Counted from the stretch's first letter, positions 16,634 through 58,125 are shown. The stretch is DNA of 64,000 nucleotides from Patescibacteria group bacterium (GCA_018902845.1 JAHIPV010000020.1:10810-74809); one strand, 5' to 3'. The notes: generated from the sequence alone by a model not told the origin. Numbers and translations: made by a program.

Positions 16634-16825
16634 ATGGTTGATTTAAAAAGTGGGTTTTATAAAACTTTTGCCAATTTACCATTGGGAGTAAGAGATGGGA
16701 TAGTATTGGTAATAGACGGTCAGCCGACAACTTGGAATGTGATCAAATTGGAGGTTGATACAGACAGTAAAACATCAAAGAAGGCCTTAAAATTGTTAGA
16801 TGAGTTGAGATTAATTAAGAAATAG
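16634..16825 (+). CDS. Small hypothetical protein
   Basis: 63-aa ORF immediately upstream of the octamer array. Weak support. Confidence 0.3.
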   Translation: MVDLKSGFYKTFANLPLGVRDGIVLVIDGQPTTWNVIKLEVDTDSKTSKKALKLLDELRLIKK

Positions 16826-16940
16826 ATAATTAGACAACTAGACAACTAGATAACTAGATAACTAGATAACTAGATAACTAGATAACCGGATAACCGGATA
16901 ACCGGATAACCGGACAACTAGATAACCGGATAACCGGATA
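16823..16940. repeat. Periodic 8-bp tandem array, about 14 units (AACTAGAT / AACCGGAT / GACAACTA)
   Basis: Sequence reads AGATAATTAGACAACTAGACAACTAGATAACTAGATAACTAGATAACTAGATAACCGGATAACCGGATAACCGGATAACCGGACAACTAGATAACCGGATAACCGGATAA. The same octamer family occurs at 47113, 47763, 49489 and 58071. Confidence 0.8.
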
Positions 16941-16945
16941 AAAAC

Positions 16946-17182
16946 ATGATGAAAAAAGGTAAAAAAATAAATATAAACGAAAAAGAAATTGTAATGGCTC
17001 AAGTCAGAACTTATGATAGTGATTTTGAATTAAGTATTGGAAGTTTTGGAACTTTTTCAAAAAAAGAATTGCTGGAAAATATCGAAAAAGAAAGTGAAGT
17101 TGGCAAGCAAATTGTTGAAATTCAGATGAATTATTTGAGGGATTTGGTCAGTGGAGATATTTACAAAATTTTGGAAGATTAA
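16946..17182 (+). CDS. Small hypothetical protein, translationally coupled to the downstream caspase-like gene
   Basis: 78-aa ORF whose stop overlaps the next start in a TAATGG junction. Confidence 0.4.
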   Translation: MMKKGKKININEKEIVMAQVRTYDSDFELSIGSFGTFSKKELLENIEKESEVGKQIVEIQMNYLRDLVSGDIYKILED

Positions 17183-17811
17183 TGGTTTTGATAACCCGAC
17201 CCAATCATGATTTGGCTACAAGGTATCTTTATCATTTTAGTAAGAAAGTAGTTGATTACTGTCAAAAAAAATCTATTTCCTTGGTAGATTTAAAAGGCAA
17301 AAAGGCCAATAGGAAATTATTTTTGAGTTATGTCAAGAAAGGAAAATTAAAGTTTGTTTTTGTAAATGGACATGGAAATGATGATATTGTGTGTGGTTAC
17401 GATAATGAAGTAATAGTTGACAAATACGAAAAGGATTTTAAAAAAACTATTTTTTATTGCAGGAGTTGTCGATCGGCAAAGATATTGGGGAAGAAATTGG
17501 TCAAAGGTGGAATCAGCGCATTTGTCGGTTATACAAAAGATTATTATGTATTGATGTCCAGAAAGAAGAATACCAATCCCCTGTCTGATAAGACTGCCAG
17601 ATTATTTTTAGACCCTTCAAATTTGGTGGCCATGTCGATATTAAAAGGAGATAATGTTGGCGAAGCAGACAAAAAGTCAAAAAAATTATTGAAGAAAAAT
17701 ATTAAAGAAGTGATTGGTAGCAAGATGAGATTTAAAGATGATGTGGTGGCCTATTTGCTTCATGATTTAAAAGCCCAAGTAGTCATTGGTGACAAAAGCG
17801 CGAAGTTGTAG
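17182..17811 (+). CDS. Mini caspase-like cysteine peptidase (clan CD-like His-Cys dyad)
   Basis: KFVFVNGHGNDD matches the hydrophobic-strand-plus-(S/N)HG pattern, and KTIFYCRSCRS matches QACRG-like. The His and Cys are about 40 residues apart, as in caspases. Confidence 0.4.
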   Translation: MVLITRPNHDLATRYLYHFSKKVVDYCQKKSISLVDLKGKKANRKLFLSYVKKGKLKFVFVNGHGNDDIVCGYDNEVIVDKYEKDFKKTIFYCRSCRSAKILGKKLVKGGISAFVGYTKDYYVLMSRKKNTNPLSDKTARLFLDPSNLVAMSILKGDNVGEADKKSKKLLKKNIKEVIGSKMRFKDDVVAYLLHDLKAQVVIGDKSAKL

Positions 17812-17890
17812 GTGGGAGAGTAGTGTGAAATGGGATAAGAAATTGGTAGAATGGACTTGACAACTCCATTCTACATTGTAAAATGGAGTT

Positions 17891-19021
17891 GTGTACACTA
17901 GAATTTTAAAGCCGGTAAAAGATAAATGTTTCTTTTTGTTTGGTCCACGCGGTACAGGCAAGACCACTTGGGTCAAGACAACGTATTCGGATGCTATATA
18001 TTTGGATTTGTTGCGATCAGAATTATTTACCAGGTTAATATCTGATCCCGGCAGATTAGAACAGTACATTTTGCCTAATTATCAAGGATATGTGGTGATC
18101 GACGAAGTTCAACGGGTGCCAGAGTTGCTTAATGAAGTTCATCGTTTAATTGAAGATAGAAAAATTAAATTTGTTTTGACCGGTAGTAGCGCTCGAAAAA
18201 TTCGTCGCGGTGGTTATAATTTGTTGGCGGGAAGGGCATTGTCATATCAAATGTATCCATTGACGGCAATAGAAATGGGCGATGATTTTAATTTAGGTAG
18301 AAGTGTGATTCGAGGGATGTTGCCAATGGCGCAAGTTGATGGTTATGGTGAGTACTTGAAAAGTTACATTCAAACTTATTTAGAACAAGAAATAATGCAA
18401 GAAGGATTGACTCGAAATTTGTCGGCTTTTGCCAGATTTTTAGAAGTGGCCAGTTTTTCTCAAGGACAGTTGTTAAATATGGCCTCCATATCTCGAGATG
18501 TGGGAGTAGGACGCAAAGTGATAAGTGGTTATTTTACTATTTTGCAAGATTTGCTGATTGGATATTTGATCAAACCGTTTACCAAGAGGTCAAAAAGAAG
18601 GTTGGTGTCGCATGCAAAGTTTTATTTTTTTGATTGTGGAGTATATCGGGCGATTAGGCCAACCGGACCGCTTGATTCCGGTGATGAGGTGAGTGGAATA
18701 GCAACGGAGTCTTTGGTGTTGAGCCAGTTGATGGCAAATAATGATTTGTTAAAACTAGGGTACGAAGTAAACTATTATCGAACTGCAACCGGGGTGGAGG
18801 TAGATTTTGTGTTGTATGGCAAGAGAGGTCTGGTGGCAATTGAAGTCAAAAAAAGTGGCAAATTTAAAGAGGGAATGATTAGTGGACTAAAGAGATTTAA
18901 GCTTGATTATCCTGAAGCTAAGTTGTATTTATTGTATGGAGGTAGCCAGGAATTATATGTCAATGGGGTGACGGTGATGTCTTTGGAGAAGGCACTGAAA
19001 GAGATGGATAAGTGGTTGTAG
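17891..19021 (+). CDS. AAA+ ATPase with DUF4143 domain
   Basis: LFGPRGTGKTTW and VVIDEVQ. Confidence 0.75.
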   Translation: MYTRILKPVKDKCFFLFGPRGTGKTTWVKTTYSDAIYLDLLRSELFTRLISDPGRLEQYILPNYQGYVVIDEVQRVPELLNEVHRLIEDRKIKFVLTGSSARKIRRGGYNLLAGRALSYQMYPLTAIEMGDDFNLGRSVIRGMLPMAQVDGYGEYLKSYIQTYLEQEIMQEGLTRNLSAFARFLEVASFSQGQLLNMASISRDVGVGRKVISGYFTILQDLLIGYLIKPFTKRSKRRLVSHAKFYFFDCGVYRAIRPTGPLDSGDEVSGIATESLVLSQLMANNDLLKLGYEVNYYRTATGVEVDFVLYGKRGLVAIEVKKSGKFKEGMISGLKRFKLDYPEAKLYLLYGGSQELYVNGVTVMSLEKALKEMDKWL

Positions 19022-19047
19022 AGGTAAGGATTAGGGACAATAAAGAT

Positions 19048-20109
19048 TTAGGGAGTTTGTTTGAAAACAAAATAATTGTCGACCGAAAATTGGCATTGAT
19101 CTATAAAGATTGATTTAAAAAGATCGAGATTGTTTTGTTCGTAAAATAACAGAGTAGCTTGTTTGTATAGTTTTTCGTCAACACTTCTAAATGGAATTGG
19201 AAAGTGATTGTGGGCGAGCAAGATGGCATTGCCGATAATACGACCGGTTCTTTTGTTGCCATCTTCAAAGGGTTGAATATAACTAATTAAGATCATACTT
19301 AGCAAAGATTTGGTAAAAATATTATCAGTAGAGTTGATTAACCGGCACATTTTTTGCATGCTTTCTCTAATTTGGTATTGATTGTCTAGAGGTTTGTATT
19401 TGGTGCCGGTAATGCCTACCAGGGTTTTGCGTAAGTTTTTGGAAACATTGAGTTTGTAGGTAATTATTCTGTGAATTTCTTGAATGGTGGGCAGGTCTGT
19501 TTTTTTAAAATATTTTTTTTGGTTGAAAATCAGATCTATGGCATCTTTGTGGTTTAGAAGCATGATGGTTTCGCTTTTTTGTTTACCTTTAGCTTCGATG
19601 CCTTTTTTTAACAGGAGTTCAGTGTCTAACAGGCTGTATGTGTTGCCTTCGATGAGGCTAGATTTCCAACTTAATTCAATGGTTATTCTTTCGATTTCTT
19701 TTTGAATTATGGTTGGTGATAACTTTTTGAAATTTTGCAGATATTTTTTTTGAAGTTTAAGTAATTGTTTTGTTTCGTCTTTGTTGAAGATATCAGAATT
19801 TTTTAGAGTTGAAAAAATTGAAAAATTAAAGTTTGGCAGTATGTTTCGTGAATCAATCGGTATAGAAAAATATTTGTCAATATCTATAGGTCTGAATAAT
19901 AATCCCTTGTTTGTAAGTTTGTAGGTTGTTTTTGGACCATGACCAATACGAAGCAAATAGTTTTTGGAAAGTAGAAGAGACAGATCTCTTGATAGAGTTA
20001 TGGTTGTAATTTCTTTATCTAAGAGATTTGAGAGTTGTTTTGGGGATAATGGTTTATCCTGGGAAAAGACGGATAATATTTTGGTTTGTCTGTGATTAAG
20101 TTGATTCAT
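19048..20109 (-). CDS. Fic/Doc-family protein with N-terminal winged-HTH-like region; its motif has Gln in place of the catalytic His
   Basis: The motif reads IQPFEDGNKRTGR where the canonical Fic motif is HPFx(D/E)GNGR. The His is replaced by Gln and it has NKR as in Doc. Confidence 0.65.
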   Translation of the reverse strand: MNQLNHRQTKILSVFSQDKPLSPKQLSNLLDKEITTITLSRDLSLLLSKNYLLRIGHGPKTTYKLTNKGLLFRPIDIDKYFSIPIDSRNILPNFNFSIFSTLKNSDIFNKDETKQLLKLQKKYLQNFKKLSPTIIQKEIERITIELSWKSSLIEGNTYSLLDTELLLKKGIEAKGKQKSETIMLLNHKDAIDLIFNQKKYFKKTDLPTIQEIHRIITYKLNVSKNLRKTLVGITGTKYKPLDNQYQIRESMQKMCRLINSTDNIFTKSLLSMILISYIQPFEDGNKRTGRIIGNAILLAHNHFPIPFRSVDEKLYKQATLLFYEQNNLDLFKSIFIDQCQFSVDNYFVFKQTP

Positions 20110-20250
20110 AATGCAATCATATCATCTTAATTAAATAATCATATCATTTTAATTAAATAATCATATCATTTTGATATGATTATTGAGGGTAAATGATGTG
20201 ATTTGGGAAATTTTTTTTGGAGAAGATAGGGGGATAGTATAATTATAAGA
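20110..20250. promoter_or_regulatory. Divergent intergenic region with direct repeats (TAATTAAATAATCATATCATTTT x2-3) and a palindrome AATCATATCATTTTGATATGATTA
   Basis: Read directly from the sequence. It lies between the divergent Fic and GT-C genes. Confidence 0.4.
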
Positions 20251-21828
20251 ATGAAGGTTAAAACCGGTAATTTGTTTTTTGGTTGTTGTGTATTTTTTTT
20301 GTGTTTGGTTTATTTTTTGCTTGCTTTTAAAAATCCTTTTAAAACAAATTCATTGGTATCTAATTTAGAGCCTTATCCCGATACTTTGTATTATTCTGTG
20401 CCTGCTTGGAATTTGGTGAATGGCAGAGGTTTTAAAATGTCAGCATATGGTCATGAGATTAAGAAAATTACACCACCGATTTATAGTTTGTATTTAATCC
20501 CCTTTTTTGCTTTATTTGGAGATATCAGATCGTATTATTTTGCTAATTTATTATTGTCTTTTGTTTCGATATTGGTTTTTGCAGGAATTATAAGAAAAGT
20601 TTTTGGTAATAGTTTGTTTAGTTTGGCGATTGTTTTGTTTTTGGGATTTTTGTTTGTGACTAATTATTATTTTTATAATTTACCTTCTTTGTTGATGGCA
20701 GAGAATTTGACCTTGTGTGTACTGTTGATATTGGCTTTCCTTTTGTTTGTTGATATTAGTCTTAAGTCTGTATTGATTTCAAGTTTTTTGGGGGTGTTTT
20801 TTGGCTTAATTAAATTTTCTAATTTATCTTTATCTTTGGTGTTTTTGTTTTTGTATACAGTAAAAGTTTTTGTTGGAAACAAAAATAAAAAATTTAAATT
20901 TTGGTATGTGGGGTTTTTACTTTTATTTTCATTATTTTTTATATTTTATTTAATCAGTTCGGGAATTTTTAGTGGGCACGTGAATTTAAACAAAGAAACC
21001 GGTTTTTCTTTTGGATATTTTATAAAAAATTTGAGTTTTTATTTATCTGCTTTAATGGGGAAGGACACCAGATATTTGTGGTATACAAAAAAATTAATGG
21101 CAAGAAGTGTGGTTGTATTGGCTTTTTGCGGTGTGGTAGCAGGGTTATTGATGAAAAAATTTAGAGTTTTGGTTTTAAAATTGCTGTTTTTTTTATTTGT
21201 TCCTGTTATTTGTGTTTGTTTTTTTTATTATGCTGATGCCAGATATATTTTTATGGTTTTGCCCTTGGTATTAATTTTAATCGGTTTTTTGTTTTTTGTA
21301 TTAATGAAGAAATTTGGAGCAAGGCTAAGTTATTTACTGATGTTTTTACTGATGGTTTTTTATGTTTTTGAAAAGGATGAAGGAGAGAGAAGAATTGTGT
21401 TTTTTAAGAAGCAGGTTGGATTGAATTTTAGACACAAAGAGGATCCGTGGAATTATTTGGCAATTGAGAATTTTAATAATTATTTTAAAAATAAAAATAA
21501 GGATGTTTATTTAGGAAGTTTTTTGCCGCCTTTTTATGTTGATATTTTTTCCAATCATAATTATGAGTATTTGCCAATATTTGAAAAACAGGAATTTTCC
21601 AGCGGACAAAAGAAAGTTTTAGACAAGTTTTATTCCGGTGAATTGGTTGAATATTACAAGAGTTTGGTTAAAAATGAAAAAAAAGTATTTGTATCTAATT
21701 ATTATGTGAACAATAGCGTGGGGTGGAGAAAAGTTTTTGATGATTTATTGGCAAACTTTGATACAGAATTAGTAAGGGATGGTTGTTTGGGAAGTTGTAA
21801 TATTTATAAATTGAGTTTGAAAAGGTAA
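20251..21828 (+). CDS. Polytopic membrane protein, GT-C-fold glycosyltransferase-like (ArnT/PMT-like)
   Basis: 525 aa with at least 10 TM helices. Its first extracytoplasmic loop reads PYPDTLYYSVPAWNLVNGRGF. Confidence 0.5.
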   Translation: MKVKTGNLFFGCCVFFLCLVYFLLAFKNPFKTNSLVSNLEPYPDTLYYSVPAWNLVNGRGFKMSAYGHEIKKITPPIYSLYLIPFFALFGDIRSYYFANLLLSFVSILVFAGIIRKVFGNSLFSLAIVLFLGFLFVTNYYFYNLPSLLMAENLTLCVLLILAFLLFVDISLKSVLISSFLGVFFGLIKFSNLSLSLVFLFLYTVKVFVGNKNKKFKFWYVGFLLLFSLFFIFYLISSGIFSGHVNLNKETGFSFGYFIKNLSFYLSALMGKDTRYLWYTKKLMARSVVVLAFCGVVAGLLMKKFRVLVLKLLFFLFVPVICVCFFYYADARYIFMVLPLVLILIGFLFFVLMKKFGARLSYLLMFLLMVFYVFEKDEGERRIVFFKKQVGLNFRHKEDPWNYLAIENFNNYFKNKNKDVYLGSFLPPFYVDIFSNHNYEYLPIFEKQEFSSGQKKVLDKFYSGELVEYYKSLVKNEKKVFVSNYYVNNSVGWRKVFDDLLANFDTELVRDGCLGSCNIYKLSLKR

Positions 21829-21839
21829 AATTTTAAATA

Positions 21840-22010
21840 TGAAAATTTTTGTTGTAGTGCCGAGTTGGAATGAGGGAAAAAGAGTAGTCAAGACAGTCAG
21901 AAAAGTTTTAAAAAATACAAAAAATAGCGTGATAGTTGTTGATGATGGTTCCAGTGATAATTCTTTTGTTTTGCTAAAAAAGATTTTGTCTGCCCTTTTT
22001 TGTTTTGCGT
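21840..22010 (+). pseudogene. Truncated GT2 glycosyltransferase 5' fragment
   Basis: Encodes MKIFVVVPSWNEGKRVVKTVRKVLKNTKNSVIVVDDGSSDNS, then runs into a stop after about 56 codons. Confidence 0.45.
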
Positions 22011-24170: not shown

Positions 24171-24184
24171 AAGTTAAATAATTT

Positions 24185-25720: not shown

Positions 25721-25727
25721 TTTTGTG

Positions 25728-46517: not shown

Positions 46518-47102
46518 CTATGAGTGACGCCTCCCGATTTTTTTTGGCCTAATTTTAGGGCTTTCTAAATATTCTAATTTTTCTTTCTCTCGGTATAAAA
46601 AGAGTTTGTACAGTTGGAGATTCTTTAATAAGCTTGATTCGGAGTGTTTATTGGGAATAATAATTTTTAATAATTTTTTGTTTTTTATTAAATATTGGTG
46701 TAAGCAGAAAAAGTCTCCGTCTCCTGAAACAATGACGGCCTTTTGGTAATTTTTAAATTCAATGGCGGCAGAATGCAAAACTAGTTCGGCATCAACATTT
46801 CCCTTTGGTTTGTTGTGATTGTCTTTGACTGTGGGTTTAAATACTAGTTGATAACCAAATGAGCACAGACTTTTATAAAGACCTTCATATTGTTTCAGAT
46901 ATCCGATAAACAAAAAGGCCTTAGTAACTCTAAATTTGTCTGAGAGAAATCGATGAAATTTTTTAAAATCTAGTTTCCAGCCTTTGTAAATTAACTGTCT
47001 GTTTCTATAGATATTTTTAGAAGTACCTAGATTTAGGTTTTGGCTGTCAATGAAAGCATAGATTGGCTTATTTTTTATTTTTTGGATTATTTTTTTAGAC
47101 AT
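46518..47102 (-). CDS. NYN-domain (LabA-like, PIN-related) protein
   Basis: PIYAFIDSQNLNL ... KGNVDAELVLH ... AVIVSGDGDFFCL. Confidence 0.7.
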   Translation of the reverse strand: MSKKIIQKIKNKPIYAFIDSQNLNLGTSKNIYRNRQLIYKGWKLDFKKFHRFLSDKFRVTKAFLFIGYLKQYEGLYKSLCSFGYQLVFKPTVKDNHNKPKGNVDAELVLHSAAIEFKNYQKAVIVSGDGDFFCLHQYLIKNKKLLKIIIPNKHSESSLLKNLQLYKLFLYREKEKLEYLESPKIRPKKIGRRHS

Positions 47103-47112
47103 ACGGGTGTTA

Positions 47113-47143
47113 TAGCTGGATTACTGGATAACCGGATGATGGG
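47113..47143. repeat. Octamer-family array (CTGGATTACTGGATAACCGGATGA)
   Basis: Same 8-bp periodicity and units as 16823-16940. It lies upstream of NYN gene 1. Confidence 0.6.
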
Positions 47144-47211
47144 GTTGTTTTTTTAATTGACATGGAGTTGTTGATTTAGTATAATTTGATTATCACGATG
47201 AGAGGGTACGC

Positions 47212-47751
47212 CTAAGGTCTTGTCCGAAGGTTGCTCCCTCTTTTTTTTGTTGATAATTTCTTTTTTAGGTCGTTTATATAAACGAAGTATTTTCTAAATT
47301 TTCTTAATAAGGCCGAGTATTTTTTTGGATTTGGAATGATAATGTGGGAGAGTTTGTTTTTCTTTTTGAGATATTCTATTAAGCAGTGAAAGTCTCCGTC
47401 GCCTGAAACAATGATTGCTTTGTTGTAATTGGGATATTGGATCATGGTGTGTAAAACCAGATCAGCGTCTACGTTGCCCTTGGTGTATCTTTTATCGTCT
47501 TTTTTGTATTCCAGTGTTGGTTTAAAAACAACTATATAGTCGGATTCTTGCAGATATGTGTAAAGTATTTGGTTTCCGGGAATGTAACCAATGAATAAAA
47601 AGGCTTTTTCAACTTTGTATTTATCTTTGAGGTAAATACGGAATCTTTTGAAATCTAGTTTCCAGCCTTGAGATCTGATGGAGAGGTTTAGGTTTTGGCT
47701 GTCAATGAAAGCGTAAATGGGCTTGGTTATTTTTTTATTTTTTTTAGACAT
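47212..47751 (-). CDS. NYN-domain (LabA-like) protein, tandem paralogue
   Basis: PIYAFIDSQNLNL ... KGNVDADLVLH ... AIIVSGDGDFHCL. Confidence 0.7.
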   Translation of the reverse strand: MSKKNKKITKPIYAFIDSQNLNLSIRSQGWKLDFKRFRIYLKDKYKVEKAFLFIGYIPGNQILYTYLQESDYIVVFKPTLEYKKDDKRYTKGNVDADLVLHTMIQYPNYNKAIIVSGDGDFHCLIEYLKKKNKLSHIIIPNPKKYSALLRKFRKYFVYINDLKKKLSTKKRGSNLRTRP

Positions 47752-47762
47752 ATGGGTATTAT

Positions 47763-47796
47763 AGCTGGATTACTAGATTACTGGACAACTAGACTG
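47763..47796. repeat. Octamer-family array (GCTGGATTACTAGATTACTGGACAACTAGAC)
   Basis: It lies upstream of NYN gene 2. The flanking sequence CATATGGGTATTATAGCTGGATTACT is duplicated at 47101-47125. Confidence 0.6.
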
Positions 47797-47806
47797 TTTG
47801 GGCATT

Positions 47807-48604
47807 TTAGATGTTGTCGGCGAAGGTTTTTTCTTGAGTTTTGAAATATTTAAGACCGATTAAAAGAGTAAGAATAGAAACTAAAAGGGCGATGAACAGA
47901 CTGGTAATGTTTGGCATTCCCCTGCCTAGAATTGATTGGCGGTAAGCGTTGGTAAGAACGCTTAAGGGATTGAGCTGGAATATGAAGCGAAGATGGGCCG
48001 GAACTATGTCTATCGGGTAAATAATGGGAGTTAGGTACATCCAGAGCATAAGAATAAGACCAAGCATGTATTGGACATCACGATAAATTAGATTGGCGGC
48101 AGAGAAAAAAAGAGAAACACCCAGAGTGAAAATTTGTTGAATCAGAAATATGGGTATGAACCACAAGACATTTAGATTGATTGGGATTTTGTAGATAAAG
48201 AAAAAAGCGATTAAGATGGTAGAAGCGAAAAAGAAATCAATGATTTTGGCAATGATGGTAGCTAGGGGTAAAATAGTTCTGGGAAAATATATTTTTGTGA
48301 TTAAGTTAGAACTGTTGACAAGTGAATTGGTGGCCGAAGAAAGAGAATTTGAAAAAAGAGTCCATGGCAAGAGAGCGGTGTAAAGGAAAATTGAATATGG
48401 GATTTTGGAATTGGCGTGAGTGGGAATACGCATGATGACAGAAAAGGCGAAGCTCATAACCAGCATTTGTAAGAAAGGGTTTAAGATTACCCAGAAGTAG
48501 CCTAGAATTGATTGTTTGTAACGGGCTTTGATTTCGCGACCGACCATTTGAAAAAGCAGTTCTTTGCGAGCTAGGATGGCTTTGGTTTCGGTGATGAGGA
48601 GCAT
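47807..48604 (-). CDS. ABC-2-type polysaccharide export permease (Wzm/TagG/KpsM-like)
   Basis: 265 aa with 6 TM helices, typical ABC-2 topology. It is the partner of the ATPase at 45668..46405. Confidence 0.75.
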   Translation of the reverse strand: MLLITETKAILARKELLFQMVGREIKARYKQSILGYFWVILNPFLQMLVMSFAFSVIMRIPTHANSKIPYSIFLYTALLPWTLFSNSLSSATNSLVNSSNLITKIYFPRTILPLATIIAKIIDFFFASTILIAFFFIYKIPINLNVLWFIPIFLIQQIFTLGVSLFFSAANLIYRDVQYMLGLILMLWMYLTPIIYPIDIVPAHLRFIFQLNPLSVLTNAYRQSILGRGMPNITSLFIALLVSILTLLIGLKYFKTQEKTFADNI

Positions 48605-48757: not shown

Positions 48758-48785
48758 AAGGGTGTGATGATGGGTGTTTTTCTGG

Positions 48786-48822
48786 GGGGATTCTTCGTGG
48801 AAACCTCAGAATGACGGTGGGA
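48786..48822. repeat. Family-B fragment, followed by palindrome E at 48843-48875 (TTAGACAGGTTAGAAACCTGTCTCTA)
   Basis: GGATTCTTCGTGGAAACCTCAGAATGACGGTGGGA. The palindrome-E arms AGACAGGTT/AACCTGTCT are perfect. Confidence 0.5.
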
Positions 48823-48952
48823 TGGGGTTGGGAGGAAGAGTTTTAGACAGGTTAGAAACCTGTCTCTACACGGAGGCTGGTGGATTAAAAAGAAAAAGCA
48901 ACTGTTGCAAATTTTGCAACAGTTTAAATAGTTGGGTTTGGTAGAATGAGGA

Positions 48953-49492
48953 ATGGATGAAGAGAGTAAAAAAGAATTAGCTGTAATAATTTCTGACTAT
49001 ATTGAGTCGTTGTCTTTGTTGAAGCAGTATGATGATAGGAAAATAAGGGTTTCTGGTTTGTCTGAGAAAGTAAAGTATGTTTTGGAATATAAAAAAGTGG
49101 TTGGTCTGGTGATGGAGCTGAGACAAGACTTGATTAAAAAGAATTTGGCTACAGAATTATTTGGAGTTGAAAATAGTAAAAAACTGGATGGGTTGATTGG
49201 GGCTATTAATCAAACTTTTGATGGAAAAAATTTGTATTCAAGTATTGAAGAAAAAGCGGCTAATTTGTTGTATATGGTTATTAAAGATCATCCTTTTGTC
49301 GATGGAAATAAAAGGACGGCGGCGACTTTGTTTGTATATTTTTTGAATAGAAATGGATATTTGTTTAAGAAGAATGGCGAAAGAAAGATTGATGATAGGG
49401 CTTTGGTGGCTTTGACTTTGTTGATTGCGGTCAGTGATCCAAGGGAGAAGGAAATGATGGTTAAGTTGACGATGAGTTTGATAAAGAATTAG
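48953..49492 (+). CDS. Doc-type Fic-fold protein (death-on-curing toxin family)
   Basis: DHPFVDGNKRTAATLF matches the Doc motif H-x-F-x-D-G-N-K-R. Confidence 0.65.
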   Translation: MDEESKKELAVIISDYIESLSLLKQYDDRKIRVSGLSEKVKYVLEYKKVVGLVMELRQDLIKKNLATELFGVENSKKLDGLIGAINQTFDGKNLYSSIEEKAANLLYMVIKDHPFVDGNKRTAATLFVYFLNRNGYLFKKNGERKIDDRALVALTLLIAVSDPREKEMMVKLTMSLIKN

Positions 49493-49545
49493 ACAATTAG
49501 ATAACTAGACAACTAGATTACTGGATTACTGGATGACTGGATAAA
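49489..49545. repeat. Octamer-family array (AGACAATTAGATAACTAGACAACTAGATTACTGGATTACTGGATGACTGGATAA)
   Basis: 8-bp periodic units. Confidence 0.7.
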
Positions 49546-49547
49546 AT

Positions 49548-49704
49548 GTTGTCATTGCGAGGAGTCCAACGACGTGGCAATCCCGCAGGAAGAGTAAAAA
49601 GGTGTTGATTAAAATCCCGACGGGATCCTCCAGAGGCGGACACGTTGCCATGTTGTCACGTAATAAATTAAGAAATTTAAACGTGATTTCCTCGCAATGA
49701 CAGG
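49548..49704. mobile_element. MITE-like element, ~157 bp, with 14-bp terminal inverted repeats TGTCATTGCGAGGA / TCCTCGCAATGACA
   Basis: The perfect termini are related to the family-B termini (GTCATTCYGAG). There is no coding capacity. Confidence 0.5.
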
Positions 49705-49706
49705 TT

Positions 49707-51539
49707 TTGGAGTTTGGTAGAATTGGAGATATGGGACAGAGGAAGATAAAAGCAGAAAGACGAAAAAAGAAAAACAAGGAGATCCTTCGCTACACTCAGG
49801 ATGACGGTGGGAGGCAGAATGACGGTGGGAGGATTCAGAACGACGGTGGGAGGCAGAATGACGGGGGGAGGGATTCGGGACGGGCTCGGTTTTGGTTTGG
49901 CAAGGTTGGAATAAGGGGAATATTGAGGGAGAATTGGAAGTTTTTGGTGATATTAACGATGGGGATTGTTTTGCTTTATTTGAATGCAATGAGAGGAGAT
50001 TTTGTGTCTGATGATTATGCCACTATTCCAAACAATCCTTTAATCAAGGATATGTCAGCCGGTTTTAAGGGTTTGAACGTTGTTTATATAAGCAATGTGA
50101 TTATCGCCAGACTTTTTGGAGTTACTCCCCTCCCTTTTCATTTGTATAGCCTCTTTTTGTTTATTTTGACTTGTGTGGTGGCTTTTCTTTTTTTGCGAGT
50201 TTTGTTTGGTGAAAAAGTAGCCAAATTAACGACAATTATTTTTGCCGTTCATCCGATTCATGTTGAGGCGGTTTCTTGGATTTCGGGAAAACCCTATACT
50301 TTGGCTTCTATGTTTATGTTGGCGGCTTTGCTGGTTGGAGTGTTTTTGGTGGAGACAAGGAAAAGAAAATATTTGATTTGGATGATAATTTTTGCTCTTT
50401 TGGCTTATCAGTCCGATGCGGCTAGGTCTTTATCTTTTATATTTTTGTTTTTGCTGTATTTGTGGTTTAGAGGTGGACTTGGAGGGATGAAAAAGCAGTT
50501 TTATAGATATTTGCCTTTTGTATTGGTTGTTATAACAACGGGAATTGTAATTTTGTGGCCTGGTATTAAGACAAGAATTGAGTCTGTTAATTCGGGATAT
50601 AATCGAGTTGGAAGTATTTTTTATAATCCGTTTTTTCAATATCCGACTTCGGTAACAAAGTATTTACAATTAATGCTGATTCCGGCTGATTTGACACTTT
50701 ATCACACTATGTATACTGTTCCGGTTTGGCTGAATTGGTTGGTTTTGGTGACATTTTTGTCTTTGTTGATATATTCTTTTTTTAGAGATAGAAAGATTTT
50801 TTTTGGATTGAGTTTTATGTTTTTGGCTTCGGTGGCTTCAATGGCGCCGGTTAAGGTTGGCTGGCTGGTGGCAGAAAGGTATATGTTTTTGGGGAGTTTG
50901 GGATTTTGCCTGGTACTGGTTTTGTTTTGGGACAGGATTCCTAAAAAACTGAAATTAGTAAAATTGACAGTTTTTGTATGTTTAATTATTGGTTTTACGG
51001 TTAGAACTTTTGTGAGAAATATTGATTGGCAAACTAATCATAAACTTTGGGTAAATACTGTTCAGACATCTCCAAACAGCCATAATGCTTGGAATAATAT
51101 TGGAGATGATTACGATAAATTAAAAGACTATGAAAACGCCATAAAGGGATTTACTCAATCAACTGTGATGAAGGCCAATTATGCCGATGCCTATCATAAC
51201 AGGGCCAATATTTATTTGAAAACCGGACGTTTGGATTTGGCCAGAGACAGTTATTTGACTGCTTTAAAATATTCCCCCGGTTTGTTTCAGACTTATGTGA
51301 GCTTGACTCAGGTTGAATTGATGCAGAAAAAACCTGAAAAGGCAATGGAATATGCCAAAAAAACGGTTGAGATGCAACCAAACAATTTTCAAGCCCATTA
51401 TGTTTTGGGGGTAGTTTTGGCTCAGTCGGGAAATAGAGAGGAGGCTTTAAAAGAGATAAAGATTTCTTTACAACTGAACCCTAATTTTGGGCCGGCTAAA
51501 GATGCGTTGGTTAAACTAAATTCAGATGAATCAAAATAA
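49707..51539 (+). CDS. Transmembrane + C-terminal TPR-repeat protein (TMTC/GT-C-like architecture)
   Basis: About 9 TM helices followed by 4-5 TPR units (NAWNNIGDDYDKLKDYENAIKGF ... AYHNRANIYLKTGRLDLARDSY ...). The first ~60 codons are repeat-derived, so the true start may be internal, for example near 49951. Confidence 0.55.
   Translation: MEFGRIGDMGQRKIKAERRKKKNKEILRYTQDDGGRQNDGGRIQNDGGRQNDGGRDSGRARFWFGKVGIRGILRENWKFLVILTMGIVLLYLNAMRGDFVSDDYATIPNNPLIKDMSAGFKGLNVVYISNVIIARLFGVTPLPFHLYSLFLFILTCVVAFLFLRVLFGEKVAKLTTIIFAVHPIHVEAVSWISGKPYTLASMFMLAALLVGVFLVETRKRKYLIWMIIFALLAYQSDAARSLSFIFLFLLYLWFRGGLGGMKKQFYRYLPFVLVVITTGIVILWPGIKTRIESVNSGYNRVGSIFYNPFFQYPTSVTKYLQLMLIPADLTLYHTMYTVPVWLNWLVLVTFLSLLIYSFFRDRKIFFGLSFMFLASVASMAPVKVGWLVAERYMFLGSLGFCLVLVLFWDRIPKKLKLVKLTVFVCLIIGFTVRTFVRNIDWQTNHKLWVNTVQTSPNSHNAWNNIGDDYDKLKDYENAIKGFTQSTVMKANYADAYHNRANIYLKTGRLDLARDSYLTALKYSPGLFQTYVSLTQVELMQKKPEKAMEYAKKTVEMQPNNFQAHYVLGVVLAQSGNREEALKEIKISLQLNPNFGPAKDALVKLNSDESK
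49797..49872. repeat. Tandem 21-bp repeat x3.5 (GGGAGGCAGAATGACGGTGGG-type), derived from a family-B terminus
   Basis: It would encode DDGGRQNDGGRIQNDGGRQNDGGR in frame. Confidence 0.7.
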
Positions 51540-52926: not shown

Positions 52927-53840
52927 AGATTTTTGTAACCGGGGCTACTGGAAAAATAGGTAAAAAAATTACCAGACTTTTAGTTGAAAATAGATATAGC
53001 GTGGTTGCTTTGTATAGAGATAAAAAAAGGATATTTTTGAAGGATAAAATTGAATGGGTTAAAGGAGATTTGTTGGATTTGCCGAAAAAAGCAAGCGAAT
53101 GGTTGAAAGAATGTGATTTGATTGTGCATATGGCCGGGAAATTGGGTATGTTTGATAGAGATTGTTTGCGGGTTAATGTTGAGGGCACTAAAAAATTGTT
53201 ACTGTCAATAGATGGGGGAAAAAGGATTAGATTTATTTATTTTAGTTCCATTGATGCCTTTGGAACTACCGGTAAAAAACAGGTTAATGAAAAGGATACT
53301 GCTCTGCCCTATTGTGTTTATGGAAAGTCAAAACTTCTAGCAGAAAAAGCGATAGTTAATTATAGAAAAAAGCATAAATCTTTTTCTTATGTAATTTTGC
53401 GTTTGGGTAATGTGGCTGGATTTGGTGGTGAAGATTTGTTGTCTTGTTTGTATTCAATTAAAAAAAAGAATTTTTTGTTAAAGAAAATATTAATTGGTCT
53501 TTTTGGTGAAAATGAGCTAAATATTGTTTGTATCAACGATATTAAAAGAGTGTTTTTGCAAGTTATTAAAAAAAAGAAGTATAAAAACAGGGTACGGTTT
53601 TTGACAGGAAAGAATGTTAGTTTGTTAATGCTGGTGAGTGGCAGTAGTGGTAGTTTTTTGTTTAAATGTTTTAAAATTGTTTTGCTTTGTTTAATGAAAG
53701 TTAGCAGGAGGGGTGGTTTTTATTACTATTTGGGAGCGGGTGGAGTTTTGAGACCATACAGAAGATACTCCAATAAAATATATGAGGAATTAAAGGTGAA
53801 ATTAAAAAATGAATGTATCAATAATAATAGCAACTTATAA
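52923..53840 (+). CDS. NAD-dependent epimerase/dehydratase (extended SDR)
   Basis: MKIFVTGATGKIGKKI. The start overlaps the previous gene's stop in an ATGA junction. Confidence 0.7.
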   Translation: MKIFVTGATGKIGKKITRLLVENRYSVVALYRDKKRIFLKDKIEWVKGDLLDLPKKASEWLKECDLIVHMAGKLGMFDRDCLRVNVEGTKKLLLSIDGGKRIRFIYFSSIDAFGTTGKKQVNEKDTALPYCVYGKSKLLAEKAIVNYRKKHKSFSYVILRLGNVAGFGGEDLLSCLYSIKKKNFLLKKILIGLFGENELNIVCINDIKRVFLQVIKKKKYKNRVRFLTGKNVSLLMLVSGSSGSFLFKCFKIVLLCLMKVSRRGGFYYYLGAGGVLRPYRRYSNKIYEELKVKLKNECINNNSNL

Positions 53841-54729
53841 CAGAGCTGATATTTTAAAAAAGGCTGTTGTTTTGTTAAAAAAACAAAAAACAGATGTAGA
53901 TTTTGAGGTATTGATAGTTGACGATGGTTCGGATGAAAAAAATAAAAAGAAGTTGAAGTTATTAGAGAAAGATTCCAGATTCAGATTTTTTTATAGAAAA
54001 AAAAGGGGTCCGGCCGGAGCCAGAAATTTTGGGATTTTAAAATCAAAAAATGATGTTTTGATATTTATGAATGATGATACTTTTGTGTCAACGGATTTTG
54101 TAAAAAGGCATTTTGAATTTCACAAAACGAATAAAAATGAGGAAGTTTTTTTAACCGGTCCAATGATAAATTATCCTAAATTTAGAATTAGTCCGGCCAT
54201 GGAGTGGCTTTTGAGCAGGAGCAATTTGCATTTTGATTATAGTAATACGGATAACGCTAATTTAGATTGGGGATTTTTTTGGACATGCAATGTGTCTTTG
54301 AAGAAAAAATTTTTGTTAAAAAATAATTTGTTTTTTGATGAGAATTTTCCAAAAGCGGCTTGGGAAGATTTTGAATTTGCTTATAGAGCCAGTTTAAAAG
54401 GAATGAAACTTTTTTATGACGAAAAGTTAACTGTTTATCATTATCATAAATTTAATTTTGATGATGTTTTGAATAGATTTTTTAATCATGGAAGAGGATT
54501 GTATTTTTTGGAACAAAAGGTACCGGCAAAATATTTGCCCCCTATGGGTAAAGATAAATCCAGAAAATTGCTTAGATTTTTTTTGTTTATAAGCATGAGT
54601 TGCTTTTGGTTAAAAATTTCTGAAAAAAGATTAAAAAAGAGTAAAAAAATTTCTAATATATTGATGCAGTTATTAGTTTTGGCTGAAAAATTGAAGGGCT
54701 ATGACTTTGAAAAAAGAAAAATACGATAA
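53809..54729 (+). CDS. Glycosyltransferase family 2
   Basis: VSIIIATYNRADIL ... VLIVDDGSDE. Confidence 0.75.
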   Translation: MNVSIIIATYNRADILKKAVVLLKKQKTDVDFEVLIVDDGSDEKNKKKLKLLEKDSRFRFFYRKKRGPAGARNFGILKSKNDVLIFMNDDTFVSTDFVKRHFEFHKTNKNEEVFLTGPMINYPKFRISPAMEWLLSRSNLHFDYSNTDNANLDWGFFWTCNVSLKKKFLLKNNLFFDENFPKAAWEDFEFAYRASLKGMKLFYDEKLTVYHYHKFNFDDVLNRFFNHGRGLYFLEQKVPAKYLPPMGKDKSRKLLRFFLFISMSCFWLKISEKRLKKSKKISNILMQLLVLAEKLKGYDFEKRKIR

Positions 54730-55444
54730 GGATTATTATAATCGGGGCATAATAGGAAAAGGATTGGAAGATATCTTGATTAGATTGGCGAATCTTGGAG
54801 TATTGAGAGGAGTTAAGGATGGGGCTAGGATTTTGGACTTGGGATGCGGGCAGGGGTTGTGGTTAGAATATTTAAGGAAAAAAGGTTTTGATGGTTGGGG
54901 ATTAGATACCTCTAGGGCGGCGATTGGGGAAGCGGTTAAACGGTTGGGGAAAAAGAAATTGATAGTTGGTGAGTTAGAGAGGGTTGGATTTAAAAAGAAT
55001 TTTTTTGATGCAGTAACTTGTTTCCATGTTTTGGAACATGTAAAGAAAGCTGATAGTTTAGTAAAGGAAGTTTTTGGAATACTTAAAAAAGACGGGTTGT
55101 TTGTTTTGAGACTACCGGATTTTTCTTCTTGGGAGGTGAAGTTGGCTGGTGAGAGATGGTTTCATGGCGATGCTTTGTACCATGTAAAAAATTATGATAA
55201 AAAATCGGTTGTAAAGTTATTGAAAAAAGCGGGTTTTGAGCAAATTGAAGTTAAGCCGGCTTTGTTTGAGTATAGACAGACTTTGTTGTATTCACTGATT
55301 AATTTTTGTGGGGTTGAAAAGATTAGTAGATTTTGGCGGTTTTTGCTTTTGCCTTTGCAGTTATTTTTTGCGCCTTTGTCGTTTTTTTTGGCAGTGGTTT
55401 TTGCCAATAGCGGGACAATGGAAGTTAGAGCTTTGAGAGGATAA
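54701..55444 (+). CDS. Class I SAM-dependent methyltransferase
   Basis: ARILDLGCGQGLW ... VTCFHVLEHV ... LKKDGLFVL. Confidence 0.75.
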   Translation: MTLKKEKYDKDYYNRGIIGKGLEDILIRLANLGVLRGVKDGARILDLGCGQGLWLEYLRKKGFDGWGLDTSRAAIGEAVKRLGKKKLIVGELERVGFKKNFFDAVTCFHVLEHVKKADSLVKEVFGILKKDGLFVLRLPDFSSWEVKLAGERWFHGDALYHVKNYDKKSVVKLLKKAGFEQIEVKPALFEYRQTLLYSLINFCGVEKISRFWRFLLLPLQLFFAPLSFFLAVVFANSGTMEVRALRG

Positions 55445-55453
55445 GATAAATAA

Positions 55454-56902
55454 GTGAGTAAAAAGATTAAAGTATTAATAGCTAATTCTGTAGGAAAAGA
55501 TGAAAATGGAAATAATTTTATTTTGTTTCCCAGTCGGTGGACAGCCAATGTGGGCAAGACAAAGTCTTTTAATTTTTATCCCTATGAATTGGCTTATTTG
55601 TCAAGTATTTTAAAAAAAGAAAATTGCTGGGATGTATTAATGGTGGATGGGAATTTTGAGGCTTTGGATTGGAAAAAATATTTTGAAAAATATAAATTTG
55701 TGAAACCGGATTTTTTGGTGATGGAAACTTCCAGTGTGGTGTATGAAATGGATTTGAAATTTGGACTGGCTTTTAAGAAGAAATATGGAACAAAATTGAT
55801 TTTTTGTGGCCAGCACCCCAGCGCTTTTGCCAAAGAGGTAATGAAGGATGGGGTGGATTATGTTTGTTTGGGTGAATATGAATTGACGGTTTTGGATATT
55901 TTGAAAGGAAAAAAGAGATCGAAAATCAGGGGTTTGTATCCGAATGAAAGGAGGGAGCTTTTGGAGGTTGATTGTTTGCCTTTTCCTGAAGATGATGATA
56001 TTTCTCGAATAAATTATGCTGACATTGGCGGTTGTGATTATAAGGAAATAGAATTTTTTGCCAGCAGAGGGTGCATGATGAATTGTAATTTTTGTGTAGC
56101 TTCTCAGTTGTATTATAAAAAACCGAATTGGAGAGGAAGGAAAATTGAGAATATTGTGGAAGAAATTAAGTATTTGAAAAATAAATATCCAGAGATGGAG
56201 GGGATATTTTTTGATGAGGAATACCACAATACCAAAAAAAGTTTTATTTTGGATTTGTGTAAAGGCATAATTGATAATGGTTTGGCGGATTTAAAGTATG
56301 ACGCCATGTGTGGTTATTGGACTTTGGACAAAGAGATGCTTGAAGCTATGAAAAGAGCCGGTTATTACAAAATTAGGATTGGGATTGAGTCGGTGGATAT
56401 GAAAACGGCTAAAGGTATAAAGAAAAATATTAATATAAAAAGGCTTTTGAAAGTGTTAAATTTGGCCAAAAAAGTGGGGATGAGAATGTATGGCACTTTT
56501 ACTTTTGGGGCTTTGGGATCGACTGCCAAAAGCGACAGGAAGACGATTAATTTTTTGTCTGAGCTTTTGGATAAGAATTTGCTTTATGATTTTCAAACAT
56601 CAATATGTACTCCTCAACCGGGGACAGGATTTTTTGATTGGCTGGATAAGAATAATTATTTGTTTACCAAAGATTGGTTGAAATATGATGGGAAGACGGC
56701 GGTTTATGAATACCCTGATTATTCAAAAAAAGAGATTGAAGATAATTTAAAATTGGCTCATGTAATTTATGCAAAGAAAGAATTGAAAGACAAGGGATAT
56801 TTAAAATTGATTGGTGATGAAATCAAAAAGTCCGGTTTATTGGGTTTTTGCCGTAAAAGTTTTGAATTGGGGAAAAGCTACTTTTTTTCAGTTAGGCGGT
56901 AA
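55454..56902 (+). CDS. B12-binding-domain radical SAM protein (class B)
   Basis: ASRGCMMNCNFCV (CxxxCxxC), probable GTG start, and an N-terminal B12-type domain. Confidence 0.8.
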   Translation: MSKKIKVLIANSVGKDENGNNFILFPSRWTANVGKTKSFNFYPYELAYLSSILKKENCWDVLMVDGNFEALDWKKYFEKYKFVKPDFLVMETSSVVYEMDLKFGLAFKKKYGTKLIFCGQHPSAFAKEVMKDGVDYVCLGEYELTVLDILKGKKRSKIRGLYPNERRELLEVDCLPFPEDDDISRINYADIGGCDYKEIEFFASRGCMMNCNFCVASQLYYKKPNWRGRKIENIVEEIKYLKNKYPEMEGIFFDEEYHNTKKSFILDLCKGIIDNGLADLKYDAMCGYWTLDKEMLEAMKRAGYYKIRIGIESVDMKTAKGIKKNINIKRLLKVLNLAKKVGMRMYGTFTFGALGSTAKSDRKTINFLSELLDKNLLYDFQTSICTPQPGTGFFDWLDKNNYLFTKDWLKYDGKTAVYEYPDYSKKEIEDNLKLAHVIYAKKELKDKGYLKLIGDEIKKSGLLGFCRKSFELGKSYFFSVRR

Positions 56903-58070
56903 AGATTTGTTGATAAATACGCTTGGTTCTTTTTTTCCAGTCCCAGGTATGGATTATAAGATCGTAGGCGTCTTTAGATGTTTTTTTGTAGAGAGTTGGA
57001 TTATCCAGTAATTTTATTATGTTTTGGGCGAATTTATCCAGGTCGTATTTTGGGGTTTTTAATATGCCTTTGGGGTAATAGGTTTTTAGCGATTCCAGGT
57101 CAAAAGAAACTGCCGGTAATTTGTATGCCATACCTTGAGCGGCTGACATTCCCCCGCTATCAAAAGTGGCCGGATGGAGAATCATTTTGCTTTGTTTGAA
57201 AATATTTTGTGTTTGGGTATTTTCTTTGAAGCCAGTAAGAATAATATTATTTTTTAGACCAAGTTTTTTTATCTTGTTTTTTACCTTATTCATTAATTCT
57301 CCATCGCCTATCATGACCAGTTTGGCATTTGGTTTTTGGGCAACGACTTTTTTCCAAATATCTATTAACTCTAAAACTCCTTTTTGAAAATGGAATCTGC
57401 CCATGAAACAGGCGTCGTATTGAGGTTTCTCCCTTCGGGTGACTTGGGCTTTGCATGTGATTGAATTTGGAATATCAACTCCTCCCTGGACAATTATGAC
57501 CTTTTTGTGGGGGAATTTTTTTGTGTCGGGTTTTGAAGTGACCAAAACAAAATCAGCCCATTTTTTGACTATAAACAAACTTGGTTGTTGCATTGTCCAG
57601 TAGAGAATACCTTTGATTTTATTAATACCCTTGTATGGAGAAGAGTGTGAAAAAGGAGGAGGGGCGAGGAGATAATATCCGGCTATCCATTTTATCTTGG
57701 GATTGATTAATTTGGAGTAAAAAGCAGGCAGTAAATCGGGATAAAAGTCTGAGGCTGAGTAAATAAAGTGGCTATTATTGATAATATTGCCGTGCTTTTG
57801 TGCAGTTTTTAATCCTTTGATTGTTCTTCTGACAGTATGTTTTAGTATATTGAATGTTGAAAAATGGTTCGGATTAGTATTTTTTGTATCTGTTTTGATT
57901 ATTTTTATGTTTGATAATTGATGGCGATTAAAAATATTAATAGTTTCTTGGCTGGCCAGAACAGTAATTTTTAGTTTTTTTTGCCAGTGTTTGATGAAGT
58001 TGATAAGTATAGTATCGCCGCCGCTAAGACCGTTGCCGAGGTTGTTGTTGGCTATGATTAATAGATTCAT
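56892..58070 (-). CDS. Glycosyltransferase family 4
   Basis: C-terminal GT-B motifs LHPATFDSGGMSAAQGMAYKLPAVS. Confidence 0.7.
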   Translation of the reverse strand: MNLLIIANNNLGNGLSGGDTILINFIKHWQKKLKITVLASQETINIFNRHQLSNIKIIKTDTKNTNPNHFSTFNILKHTVRRTIKGLKTAQKHGNIINNSHFIYSASDFYPDLLPAFYSKLINPKIKWIAGYYLLAPPPFSHSSPYKGINKIKGILYWTMQQPSLFIVKKWADFVLVTSKPDTKKFPHKKVIIVQGGVDIPNSITCKAQVTRREKPQYDACFMGRFHFQKGVLELIDIWKKVVAQKPNAKLVMIGDGELMNKVKNKIKKLGLKNNIILTGFKENTQTQNIFKQSKMILHPATFDSGGMSAAQGMAYKLPAVSFDLESLKTYYPKGILKTPKYDLDKFAQNIIKLLDNPTLYKKTSKDAYDLIIHTWDWKKRTKRIYQQIFTA

Positions 58071-58125
58071 GGTTACTGGACAATTAGATAACTGGATTAC
58101 TAGATTACTGGATAACTAGATAAAG
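58071..58125. repeat. Octamer-family array in a divergent promoter region
   Basis: GGTTACTGGACAATTAGATAACTGGATTACTAGATTACTGGATAACTAGATAAAG. Confidence 0.7.

Follow-up and report, generated by a model that had tools for sequence, protein, structure and literature searches.

Octamer repeat arrays at gene junctions of a Microgenomates genome and their candidate link to PF05635 cassettes

The 64,000-nucleotide stretch of DNA analyzed here (Patescibacteria group bacterium, GCA_018902845.1 JAHIPV010000020.1:10810-74809; the window) has a GC content of 34% and is occupied by a large envelope-glycan island encoding GT2 and GT4 glycosyltransferases, methyltransferases, radical-SAM enzymes, PMT_2 proteins and an ABC-2 exporter. 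Interspersed with these are accessory and candidate defence genes, namely AbiEii, two AAA_14/DUF4143 ATPases, three Fic genes and two NYN genes; no tRNA and no Rfam match was found in the window. Within 41 kb of this island, at sites that an initial annotation of the same DNA had already named, the octamer YRGAYWAC forms five tandem arrays (A1 to A5) with a total of 35 units, every one on the + strand. We describe these arrays and their relatives in the surrounding clade, where arrays of the same period bracket genes of the PF05635 family.

The five arrays stand far above chance. Tandem Repeats Finder (TRF) called period 8 at all five, and a degenerate two-unit pattern allowing up to one mismatch gave 28 matches compared with 0.06 expected from shuffles; 27 of these lie inside arrays, all on the + strand. 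A three-unit scoring scan returned the same five sites alone (shuffles, 0) and no array copy on the - strand of the window. The earlier claims that octamer arrays occupy these sites and that they form one family with a shared consensus are therefore borne out, with slightly refined limits; the consensus RGAYWACY in its earlier register is equivalent to YRGAYWAC here. In the window arrays, G3, A4, A7 and C8 are fixed in 25/25 internal units, whereas positions 1, 2 and 5 each take two states and position 6, apart from a single G, is either A or T. Almost every combination of states at the variable positions occurs. The 35 units comprise 17 types and are not decayed copies of a single octamer. 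Runs of identical units are confined to A1, where adjacent identical units form blocks; A4 and A5 have no identical neighbours.

Each array is fitted closely to a gene junction. A1 (16823-16942, +) consists of 15 units: TAGATAAT, two of TAGACAAC, five of TAGATAAC, three of CGGATAAC, and then CGGACAAC, TAGATAAC, CGGATAAC and CGGATAAA. The site had been correctly placed, but the array had been given as about 14 units at 16823-16940. Its first bases are the TAG stop codon of a 63-aa open reading frame (ORF; 16634-16825), and the ATG of a 78-aa ORF (16946-17182) follows 3 nt past its end. A2 (47117-47140, +) has three units, TGGATTAC TGGATAAC CGGATGAT, and begins 15 nt upstream of the ATG of NYN1 (ATG at 47102, - strand). 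A3 (47766-47797, +), with the four units TGGATTAC TAGATTAC TGGACAAC TAGACTGT, adjoins NYN2 (ATG at 47751, - strand) and occupies most of the 55-nt gap between that ATG and the ABC-2 permease stop codon (47807-47809, -), which it approaches to within 10 nt. A4 (49490-49545, +) has seven units, none alike (TAGACAAT TAGATAAC TAGACAAC TAGATTAC TGGATTAC TGGATGAC TGGATAAA); its first TAG is the stop codon of the Fic-179 gene (48953-49492; PADLOC PDC-S23, E 8e-61), and a PMT_2-TPR gene lies downstream. A5 (58077-58124, +) comprises six full units, TGGACAAT TAGATAAC TGGATTAC TAGATTAC TGGATAAC TAGATAAA, preceded by a 7-nt partial unit, TGGTTAC (58070-58076, +), whose T is shared with the start codon of the GT4 gene (56892-58070, -); the array separates this gene from the divergent methyltransferase gene (58151-58807, +). 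The location of the arrays at gene boundaries, as originally stated, is thus clear: A1 and A4 start at stop codons and A5 abuts the GT4 start. That all copies lie just upstream of genes carries little information, because this genome has almost no intergenic space; A1 and A4 start at the stop of the preceding gene, and A3 is 10 nt from a stop.

The two NYN genes fill a slot between the ABC-2 permease and ATPase genes. Although their proteins are only 51% identical, their DNA is near-identical over the array, a TATAAY box and the first ~75 nt of coding sequence (46980-47260 compared with 47630-47860), which suggests gene conversion or strong constraint on this 5' region. The NYN gene at 47212-47751 also matches PADLOC phage-defence candidates. 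Near A1, the AAA_14/DUF4143 ATPase at 15443-16588 matches PADLOC PDC-S01 (E 2e-102), and its paralog at 17891-19021 was identified by Pfam scan only. The 63-aa and 78-aa ORFs beside A1 have no Pfam, NCBIfam or PADLOC match; they were considered as a source of an array-binding protein and dropped, since no family was matched and the low-confidence AlphaFold model of the 78-aa product (pLDDT, the predicted local distance difference test score, of 61) shows no ribbon-helix-helix (RHH) or helix-turn-helix (HTH) fold.

Other sequence features accompany A2 and A4. A perfect 12/12 sigma-70 promoter, TTGACA-17-TATAAT, lies at 47157-47185 (+), and A2 ends 17 nt before its -35 element. Downstream of it, at ~47200-47250, are a hairpin and T-run (RNA fold -18.3 kcal/mol, z = -2.2); the segment 47157-47252 (+), which runs antisense to the 3' end of NYN2, is a candidate small RNA of ~60 nt or bidirectional terminator. 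Beginning 5 nt past A4 is a perfect 14-nt inverted repeat, TGTCATTGCGAGGA (49550-49563) and TCCTCGCAATGACA (49689-49702), with arms 125 nt apart. An 18-nt tandem repeat, CAGAATGACGGTGGGAGG, is present in ~4 copies at the 5' end of the TPR gene (49796-49876), with another copy ~1 kb upstream (48807-48833). These two are other repeat families of the same intergenic regions.

The common orientation of the arrays coincides with a strong strand asymmetry. GC skew is +0.2 to +0.47 over the entire window, whatever the gene strand, and the single orientation of the window arrays is therefore inseparable from strand or replication polarity. Extreme skew is common to all relatives fetched (L174-L277), in which the ABC-2 permease is always on the C-rich strand. 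Extreme strand disparity has been documented in the Microgenomates order UBA1400, for which unidirectional replication was proposed (PMC7143001).

Array stability was assessed by comparing Patescibacteria metagenome-assembled genomes (MAGs; GCA_018895715.1 and others) and independent ENA, JGI and Logan assemblies, found by exact protein match. A2, A3, A4 and A5 are unchanged in 6, 6, 9 and 12 independent assemblies, respectively, from different samples. Unit number differs only in the homogeneous run of A1, and by one unit: the window has five TAGATAAC units, compared with four in two ENA assemblies. Three short-read contigs end within A1, and the one-unit difference may be an assembly collapse. 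Slipped-strand mutation had been put forward as one explanation of the arrays, but the invariance of A2-A5 across 6-12 independent assemblies does not agree with a hotspot of this kind, and the arrays do not behave as hypermutable contingency loci.

Between genomes, the arrays come and go. In L174, whose methyltransferase is 95% identical to that of the window, an array is present at the A5 site with other units, order and number (TGGATTAC CGGATGAC TGGACAAC TAGATAAC TAGATTAA). In the 74% identical relatives L175, L176 and L179 this site has no array; the divergent start codons are 14 nt apart (L175 1387-1400, L176 4278-4291 and L179 895-908; TTATAATATTATAG), with TATAAT 7 nt before each ATG. 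Similarly, no array accompanies the NYN homologs of other genomes (75-83% identical), and the idea that the NYN promoter includes an array as a conserved element was rejected. In the NYN-only relatives L185 and L188, A3 is absent and the permease stop and NYN start overlap in a single junction copy, GACAATGTCTAAA. The window has at this site a 54-nt array-bearing insertion between two junction copies that are 8/10 identical: ATGTCTAAAA (47742-47751, -), which contains the NYN2 start codon, and ACATCTAAAA (47806-47815, -), which contains the permease stop codon. These copies resemble a target-site duplication, which was found at A3 only and neither at A5 nor at the boundaries of the PF05635 cassettes described below.

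What persists is the unit family. It is common to the window and the diverged genomes L174, L229, L254 and L260 and is missing from most relatives; in these four, G3 is retained in 54/54 units and A4 in 51/54, with unit order and type fully changed. In L229, an array of this family lies upstream of the equivalent TPR-PMT gene, as A4 does in the window. These comparisons indicate that the arrays are recent gains with quick turnover of content and retention of the same consensus. As close relatives have no arrays at the corresponding junctions, the arrays do not belong to the conserved make-up of these promoters, and the idea of a conserved shared operator finds no support. The broader proposal of a shared protein-binding array fares better: the constrained consensus keeps it plausible, without the conserved promoter role.

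TATAAY boxes also lie 6-7 nt before the ATGs adjoining A2, A3 and A5 (6 nt for the NYN genes, at 47752-47765 and 47103-47116). The boxes of the NYN genes and those of the 74% identical relatives suggest that leaderless mRNAs are common in this lineage. Promoter mimicry within the arrays themselves (TRGACA-18-TAGATT) was considered and rejected, as the matches are only 9/12, which is at shuffle level, and are not kept in L174.

To survey the clade, metagenomes were scanned with the ABC-2 permease, which yielded 80 loci (583 kb) from relatives that are 65-78% identical. A column-conservation detector found 17 arrays of period 8 in the 583 kb, compared with 5, 0, 1, 0, 0 and 0 for periods 6, 7, 9, 10, 11 and 12, respectively, and none in shuffles. 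Exact 8-bp phasing, initially regarded as unusual, is thus the dominant short period of this clade, and 7-8 bp tandem sites are known for RHH proteins. The unit families differ by lineage, with one family per genome at unlinked sites: TAGAACnn, TAGnnCTC/CCAGAGCA and nnGAnnAC, and further TAGAACTT/CTAAAGTT, nnCTCTAG/CACCAGAG and CCAGCGAA.

Across the clade the permease-ATPase slot is a variable hotspot of accessory genes, including Fic, NYN, DUF5674, PF05635 and others. In ~35 loci the permease and ATPase genes abut, and in ~13 loci the slot holds NYN or Fic plus NYN; neither group has arrays. Where the slot is occupied by a gene of ~118 aa matching PF05635 (Pfam E ~1e-40), period-8 arrays are present on both sides, in 12/12 loci of the first set. 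More lineages found via PF05635 homologs show the same bracketing, and in Shapirobacteria loci with Fic, NYN and other small genes in the slot, only PF05635 is bracketed. PF05635 is the '23S rRNA-intervening sequence protein' family, a four-helix bundle distantly like Avd (bAvd).

The two arms of these cassettes differ in placement. The left arm is built of NAG-N5 units and begins either at the stop codon of the permease gene or shortly before the ATG of the PF05635 gene. It has exactly five such units in 10 of 13 lineages (L201, L204, L221, L233, L235, L244, L254, L260, L271 and L277), despite complete change of the unit sequence; among the other three (L229, L261 and L255), two have four units and one has six to seven. 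The right arm is the reverse complement of the left and falls within the 5' portion of the ATPase ORF, past the start codon. As the sole ATG precedes the array, the repeat is read as additional sequence at the N-terminus of the ATPase (L229 8822-8903, L244 1996-2036, L235 1196-1236 and others), where gene callers report repeat-encoded peptides such as SSNPSVQLSSNP. Gain or loss of one unit (8 nt) would therefore shift the reading frame of the ATPase, and it is because of this translation that CTAG is avoided in the right arm.

Pairing between the arms was also evaluated. In the clearest loci, arm duplex energies are -29 to -53 kcal/mol, compared with -13 to -19 kcal/mol (sd ~3.5) for shuffled partners; in most loci the duplex is more stable than its shuffled controls, but L244, L254 and L233 are within the shuffled range. 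About 65% of arm positions are Watson-Crick paired, and sense-strand mismatches comprise 50 A.C and 9 G.U. With this A.C bias, the arms resemble a pair of inverted arrays built from one degenerate unit rather than a tuned RNA stem.

Several observations connect these cassettes to the window. The arms of L229, L254 and L260 are TRGAYnAC / GTnRTCYA arrays, which is the unit family of the window, and L254 and L260 have an additional adjacent inverted array pair. Solo arrays also occur in the relatives L229, L215, L225, L234 and L270. By our reading of the sequences, the YRG-N5 strand is the G-rich strand in 9/10 solo arrays, and cassette left arms have the opposite polarity. The window itself contains no inverted arms; its arrays are all solo and in one orientation.

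These arrays were compared with known repeat systems. They do not correspond to an annotated CRISPR-like or other repeat family with spacers, as their units are contiguous. The Geobacter GTTGCTYN sites were set aside as a different family with paired sites. In the literature, no period-8 arrays flanking PF05635 genes or in genomes of the Candidate Phyla Radiation (CPR) were found, which given incomplete coverage is absence of evidence only, and nothing relevant on octanucleotide repeats or on these unit sequences was found. The closest parallel to the cassettes of the relatives is the 23S rRNA intervening sequence (IVS) with an S23p/PF05635 ORF, found in Leptospira, Coxiella and Salmonella: both place a member of the same protein family in a transcription unit between inverted, partly complementary arms, and both are sporadically present or absent, consistent with a selfish cassette. 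However, the host of the cassettes in the relatives is a permease-ATPase protein operon rather than 23S rRNA, their arms are tandem 8-nt units (typically five per left arm) rather than a unique 28-bp stem, and their right arm is translated as the ATPase extension, with A.C-biased mismatches. The window is one step further removed: it has solo single-orientation arrays and no PF05635 gene, and shares the unit family with true cassette arms.

Cyanobacterial short tandemly repeated repetitive (STRR) sequences have heptamer units. Like the present arrays, they are lineage-specific, dispersed, intergenic short-unit arrays with several variants per family per genome and no known function; the present arrays, in contrast, have a strict period of 8, belong to a CPR bacterium, are placed at exact stop/start junctions and, in relatives, are tied to PF05635 genes. 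RHH proteins use 7-8 bp tandem sites (MetJ, 8-bp metboxes; omega, 7-bp heptads; ParG, 4+4-bp boxes), with one protein oligomer per unit or unit pair. Such arrays share the head-to-tail 7-8 bp units (2-10 or more, direct or inverted) and few invariant positions, but the present unit is non-palindromic, is not conserved at orthologous promoters and has no cognate RHH protein that we could find. By our own comparison AGACAACT matches the metbox AGACGTCT at 6/8 positions, and the unit was counted as unrelated in sequence; MetJ is a gammaproteobacterial protein. The ring-shaped RNA-binding attenuation proteins TRAP and HutP bind 11 (G/U)AG repeats and UAG-N4 repeats, respectively. The left arms of the relatives, as well as A1 and A4, similarly carry regularly spaced (U/C)(A/G)G triplets on the sense transcript, and the five repeats in the arms equal the reported subunit number of the candidate binder. 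The spacing is however 5 nt (period 8) rather than 2-4 nt, the candidate fold is unrelated, and A2 and A3 would be transcribed as the complement. Both RHH arrays and TRAP/HutP serve as mechanistic analogies only.

Taken together, the reading we favour, while holding it tentatively, is that each array is a copy of an octamer-repeat element specific to this clade, recently inserted precisely at a gene junction, and that the arrays are recognition arrays for an oligomeric nucleic-acid-binding protein, for which PF05635 is the best candidate. The setting is a cell-envelope glycan and accessory-gene island of a Microgenomates (CPR) genome. Each array would act as a multi-site platform that accepts one subunit per unit at 8-nt spacing; the candidate PF05635 binder would need to be encoded elsewhere in this genome, the arrays would have dispersed from cassette arms to other gene junctions, and a protein bound there, on the DNA or on its transcript, would insulate the adjoining genes or modulate their expression. 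Four fixed positions combined with turnover elsewhere is what purifying selection on a recognition code should produce, and not what microsatellite decay would leave, and the presence of one unit family per genome, differing by lineage, fits co-evolution with a trans-acting factor. The excess of period 8 in the clade, the regular bracketing of PF05635 genes and the likeness of the arms to inverted arrays of one unit also speak for this reading. A PF05635 family member from Xanthomonas campestris is reported to crystallise as a homopentamer (PMC4990558), and this reported pentamer matches the five-unit left arms. Judged from such patterns, the arrays are more likely to be protein docking sites than DnaA boxes or mutation hotspots.

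Several points weigh against this reading. The binding of PF05635 proteins to the arrays is a candidate relationship, proposed from sequence context. No PF05635 homolog was detected by tblastn (E<=10) in the window or in ~30 kb of extensions from the same organism, every PF05635 homolog retrieved derives from a different sample, and the unit counts of the window (15, 3, 4, 7 and 6) are mostly not multiples of five. The PF05635 loci share one syntenic slot, and the 13 lineages may therefore represent a single insertion. PF05635 clades track the unit families, but this is confounded with phylogeny and is what shared ancestry alone predicts. The fixed positions could result in part from recent copying of a few master units. 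Finally, orthologs in close relatives work without arrays, so that any array function is dispensable. In a bolder form of the proposal, which we consider rather unlikely, PF05635 proteins would be sequence-specific pentameric binders of (NAG-N5)x5, the gene and its arms would form an unrecognised intra-operon cassette, and the arrays would disperse to junctions as trans-controlled insulators or switches for envelope-glycan and candidate defence genes.

Other explanations account for part of these observations. The arrays are possibly, although in our judgement not probably, selfish or neutral insertions spread by copying (template switching, gene conversion or a transposition-like process), tolerated at junctions only and lethal elsewhere. 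Such spread would agree with the absence of A5 at 74% identity (where a 14-nt gap remains) and of A3 in all NYN-only relatives, with the change of unit order already at 95% identity, with the duplication-like junction copies around A3, with local duplication as seen in the identical neighbouring units of A1, and with neighbours that are accessory or candidate defence genes typical of variable regions. It would not account for four positions that stay fixed across genomes ~30% diverged in protein while all else has turned over, or for a five-unit left arm kept in 10/13 lineages despite sequence change, and no transposase, terminal inverted repeats or clear duplication accompany A1, A4 or A5. 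Very improbable by comparison are contingency loci, in which neighbouring genes would be turned on or off as 8-bp units are added or lost by strand slippage. Such loci do have in common with the arrays that short tandem repeats lie at promoter or 5' sites of surface-glycan and defence-type genes, A1 shows a five- versus four-unit difference, and a one-unit change in the right arm of the relatives would shift the ATPase frame. However, the heterogeneous units of the window disfavour slippage, copy number in A2-A5 is stable over many assemblies, and the A1 difference could reflect short-read collapse where three contigs break. Least credible of all is that the arrays are DnaA-box clusters that titrate DnaA or take part in replication control. 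The initial annotation correctly noted that the reverse complement contains TTATCCAG/TTATCCGG and compared this with a DnaA box; the reverse complement of TGGATAAC is TTATCCAGT, which matches TTATCCACA at 7/9 positions, and all arrays share one orientation on a strongly strand-asymmetric chromosome. The resemblance does not extend further, as no 9-mer in the arrays is within one mismatch of TTATCCACA, three have two mismatches, most units have 3-4, and box positions 8-9 are mismatched in every unit. Elsewhere in the window there are 22 one-mismatch sites, none of them in arrays, sister lineages use unrelated units at period 8, and the arrays come and go between close relatives.

Two further alternatives assign the arrays a role in gene expression, and both appear improbable. 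Were they operators of a conventional dedicated transcription factor, such as an RHH protein on 8-bp tandem boxes co-regulating envelope and accessory genes, the constrained consensus would be explained, as would the array positions, which are those expected for the -35 or upstream elements of promoters of the leaderless type, with TATAAY 6-7 nt ahead of the ATG; MetJ and ParG are known to use tandem operators of 8-bp period. Yet no RHH or HTH regulator was found beside any array, the orthologous promoters of relatives have no arrays, array orientation follows the chromosome strand rather than the regulated gene, and promoter-like matches within the arrays are weak and at shuffle level. The remaining alternative invokes RNA pairing, whereby, in the relatives, the two arms would anneal within the polycistronic RNA and RNase III would cut out the PF05635 message; in the window, A1, A4 and A5 would pair in trans with A2 and A3, which would be transcribed from the opposite strand. 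The arms of the relatives are reverse-complementary with energies beyond shuffled in the clearest loci, the extra inverted pair in L254 and L260 could form a local hairpin, and the rRNA IVS with the same protein family is bordered by complementary arms and cut by RNase III (PMC4990558). Against this, only ~65% of arm positions are paired, the excess of A.C over G.U mismatches (50 versus 9) is the opposite of selection on the sense RNA, duplex energies in L244, L254 and L233 are no better than shuffled, and the window has no complementary partner in cis.

The octamer was also sought beyond the clade. When 596 Gb of genomes were scanned with a degenerate four-unit pattern, at least 119 loci from many phyla matched, and some of these carry mixed-unit arrays resembling those of the window. 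In viral contigs, however, the target gave 10 loci, compared with 9 for a mirror-image and 4 for a shuffled control of equal degeneracy. As the controls thus occur there about as often as the target, the idea of a motif conserved across phyla was dropped. Orientation statistics for the cross-phylum loci were also set aside, given the heterogeneity of the set and the crudeness of the ORF calls. PF05635 is near 3/119 of the cross-phylum loci; in one Saprospiraceae MAG (Bacteroidota; L032 5700-6132), a (CAGACTAC)n array begins 36 nt after a PF05635 stop codon, which at 3/119 loci may be coincidence. Vibrio europaeus PP-638 carries at least 12 (TGGATAAC)n arrays of 6-17 units with conserved flanks gatgcggaaacggacttcgtccta ... 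taaagttgctccgc (L015, L021, L026, L029, L034, L039, L041, L069, L077, L104, L109 and L117). They constitute a separate multicopy repeat element in a cultured host, possibly related to integron cassettes. In L143 (SRR7080196), compared with window positions 58800-61800, the gene order downstream of the 526-aa radical-SAM gene differs, with an inverted copy of the methyltransferase and radical-SAM pair, reflecting either a rearrangement or a chimeric contig.

On present sequence comparisons, the arrays are best classed with the dispersed short tandem repeats, as a form connected to an IVS-like system of PF05635 cassettes in Microgenomates. They also have practical consequences: they break short-read assemblies, as seen in the three contigs that end in A1, and they are open in all frames in one orientation, so that gene callers fuse them to adjoining ORFs. 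Even if neutral, they would provide fast-evolving markers that separate closely related CPR populations. To our knowledge, PF05635/Avd-like proteins have no known role outside diversity-generating retroelements, their function having been open since the early 1990s; if the favoured reading is true, five tandem 8-nt units would be a concrete ligand for this widespread family. IVS-like cassettes, known from rRNA genes, would also colonise protein-coding operons. To the best of our knowledge, almost nothing is known of gene regulation in CPR bacteria, and the arrays would represent a lineage-specific class of cis-elements placed exactly at their gene junctions.

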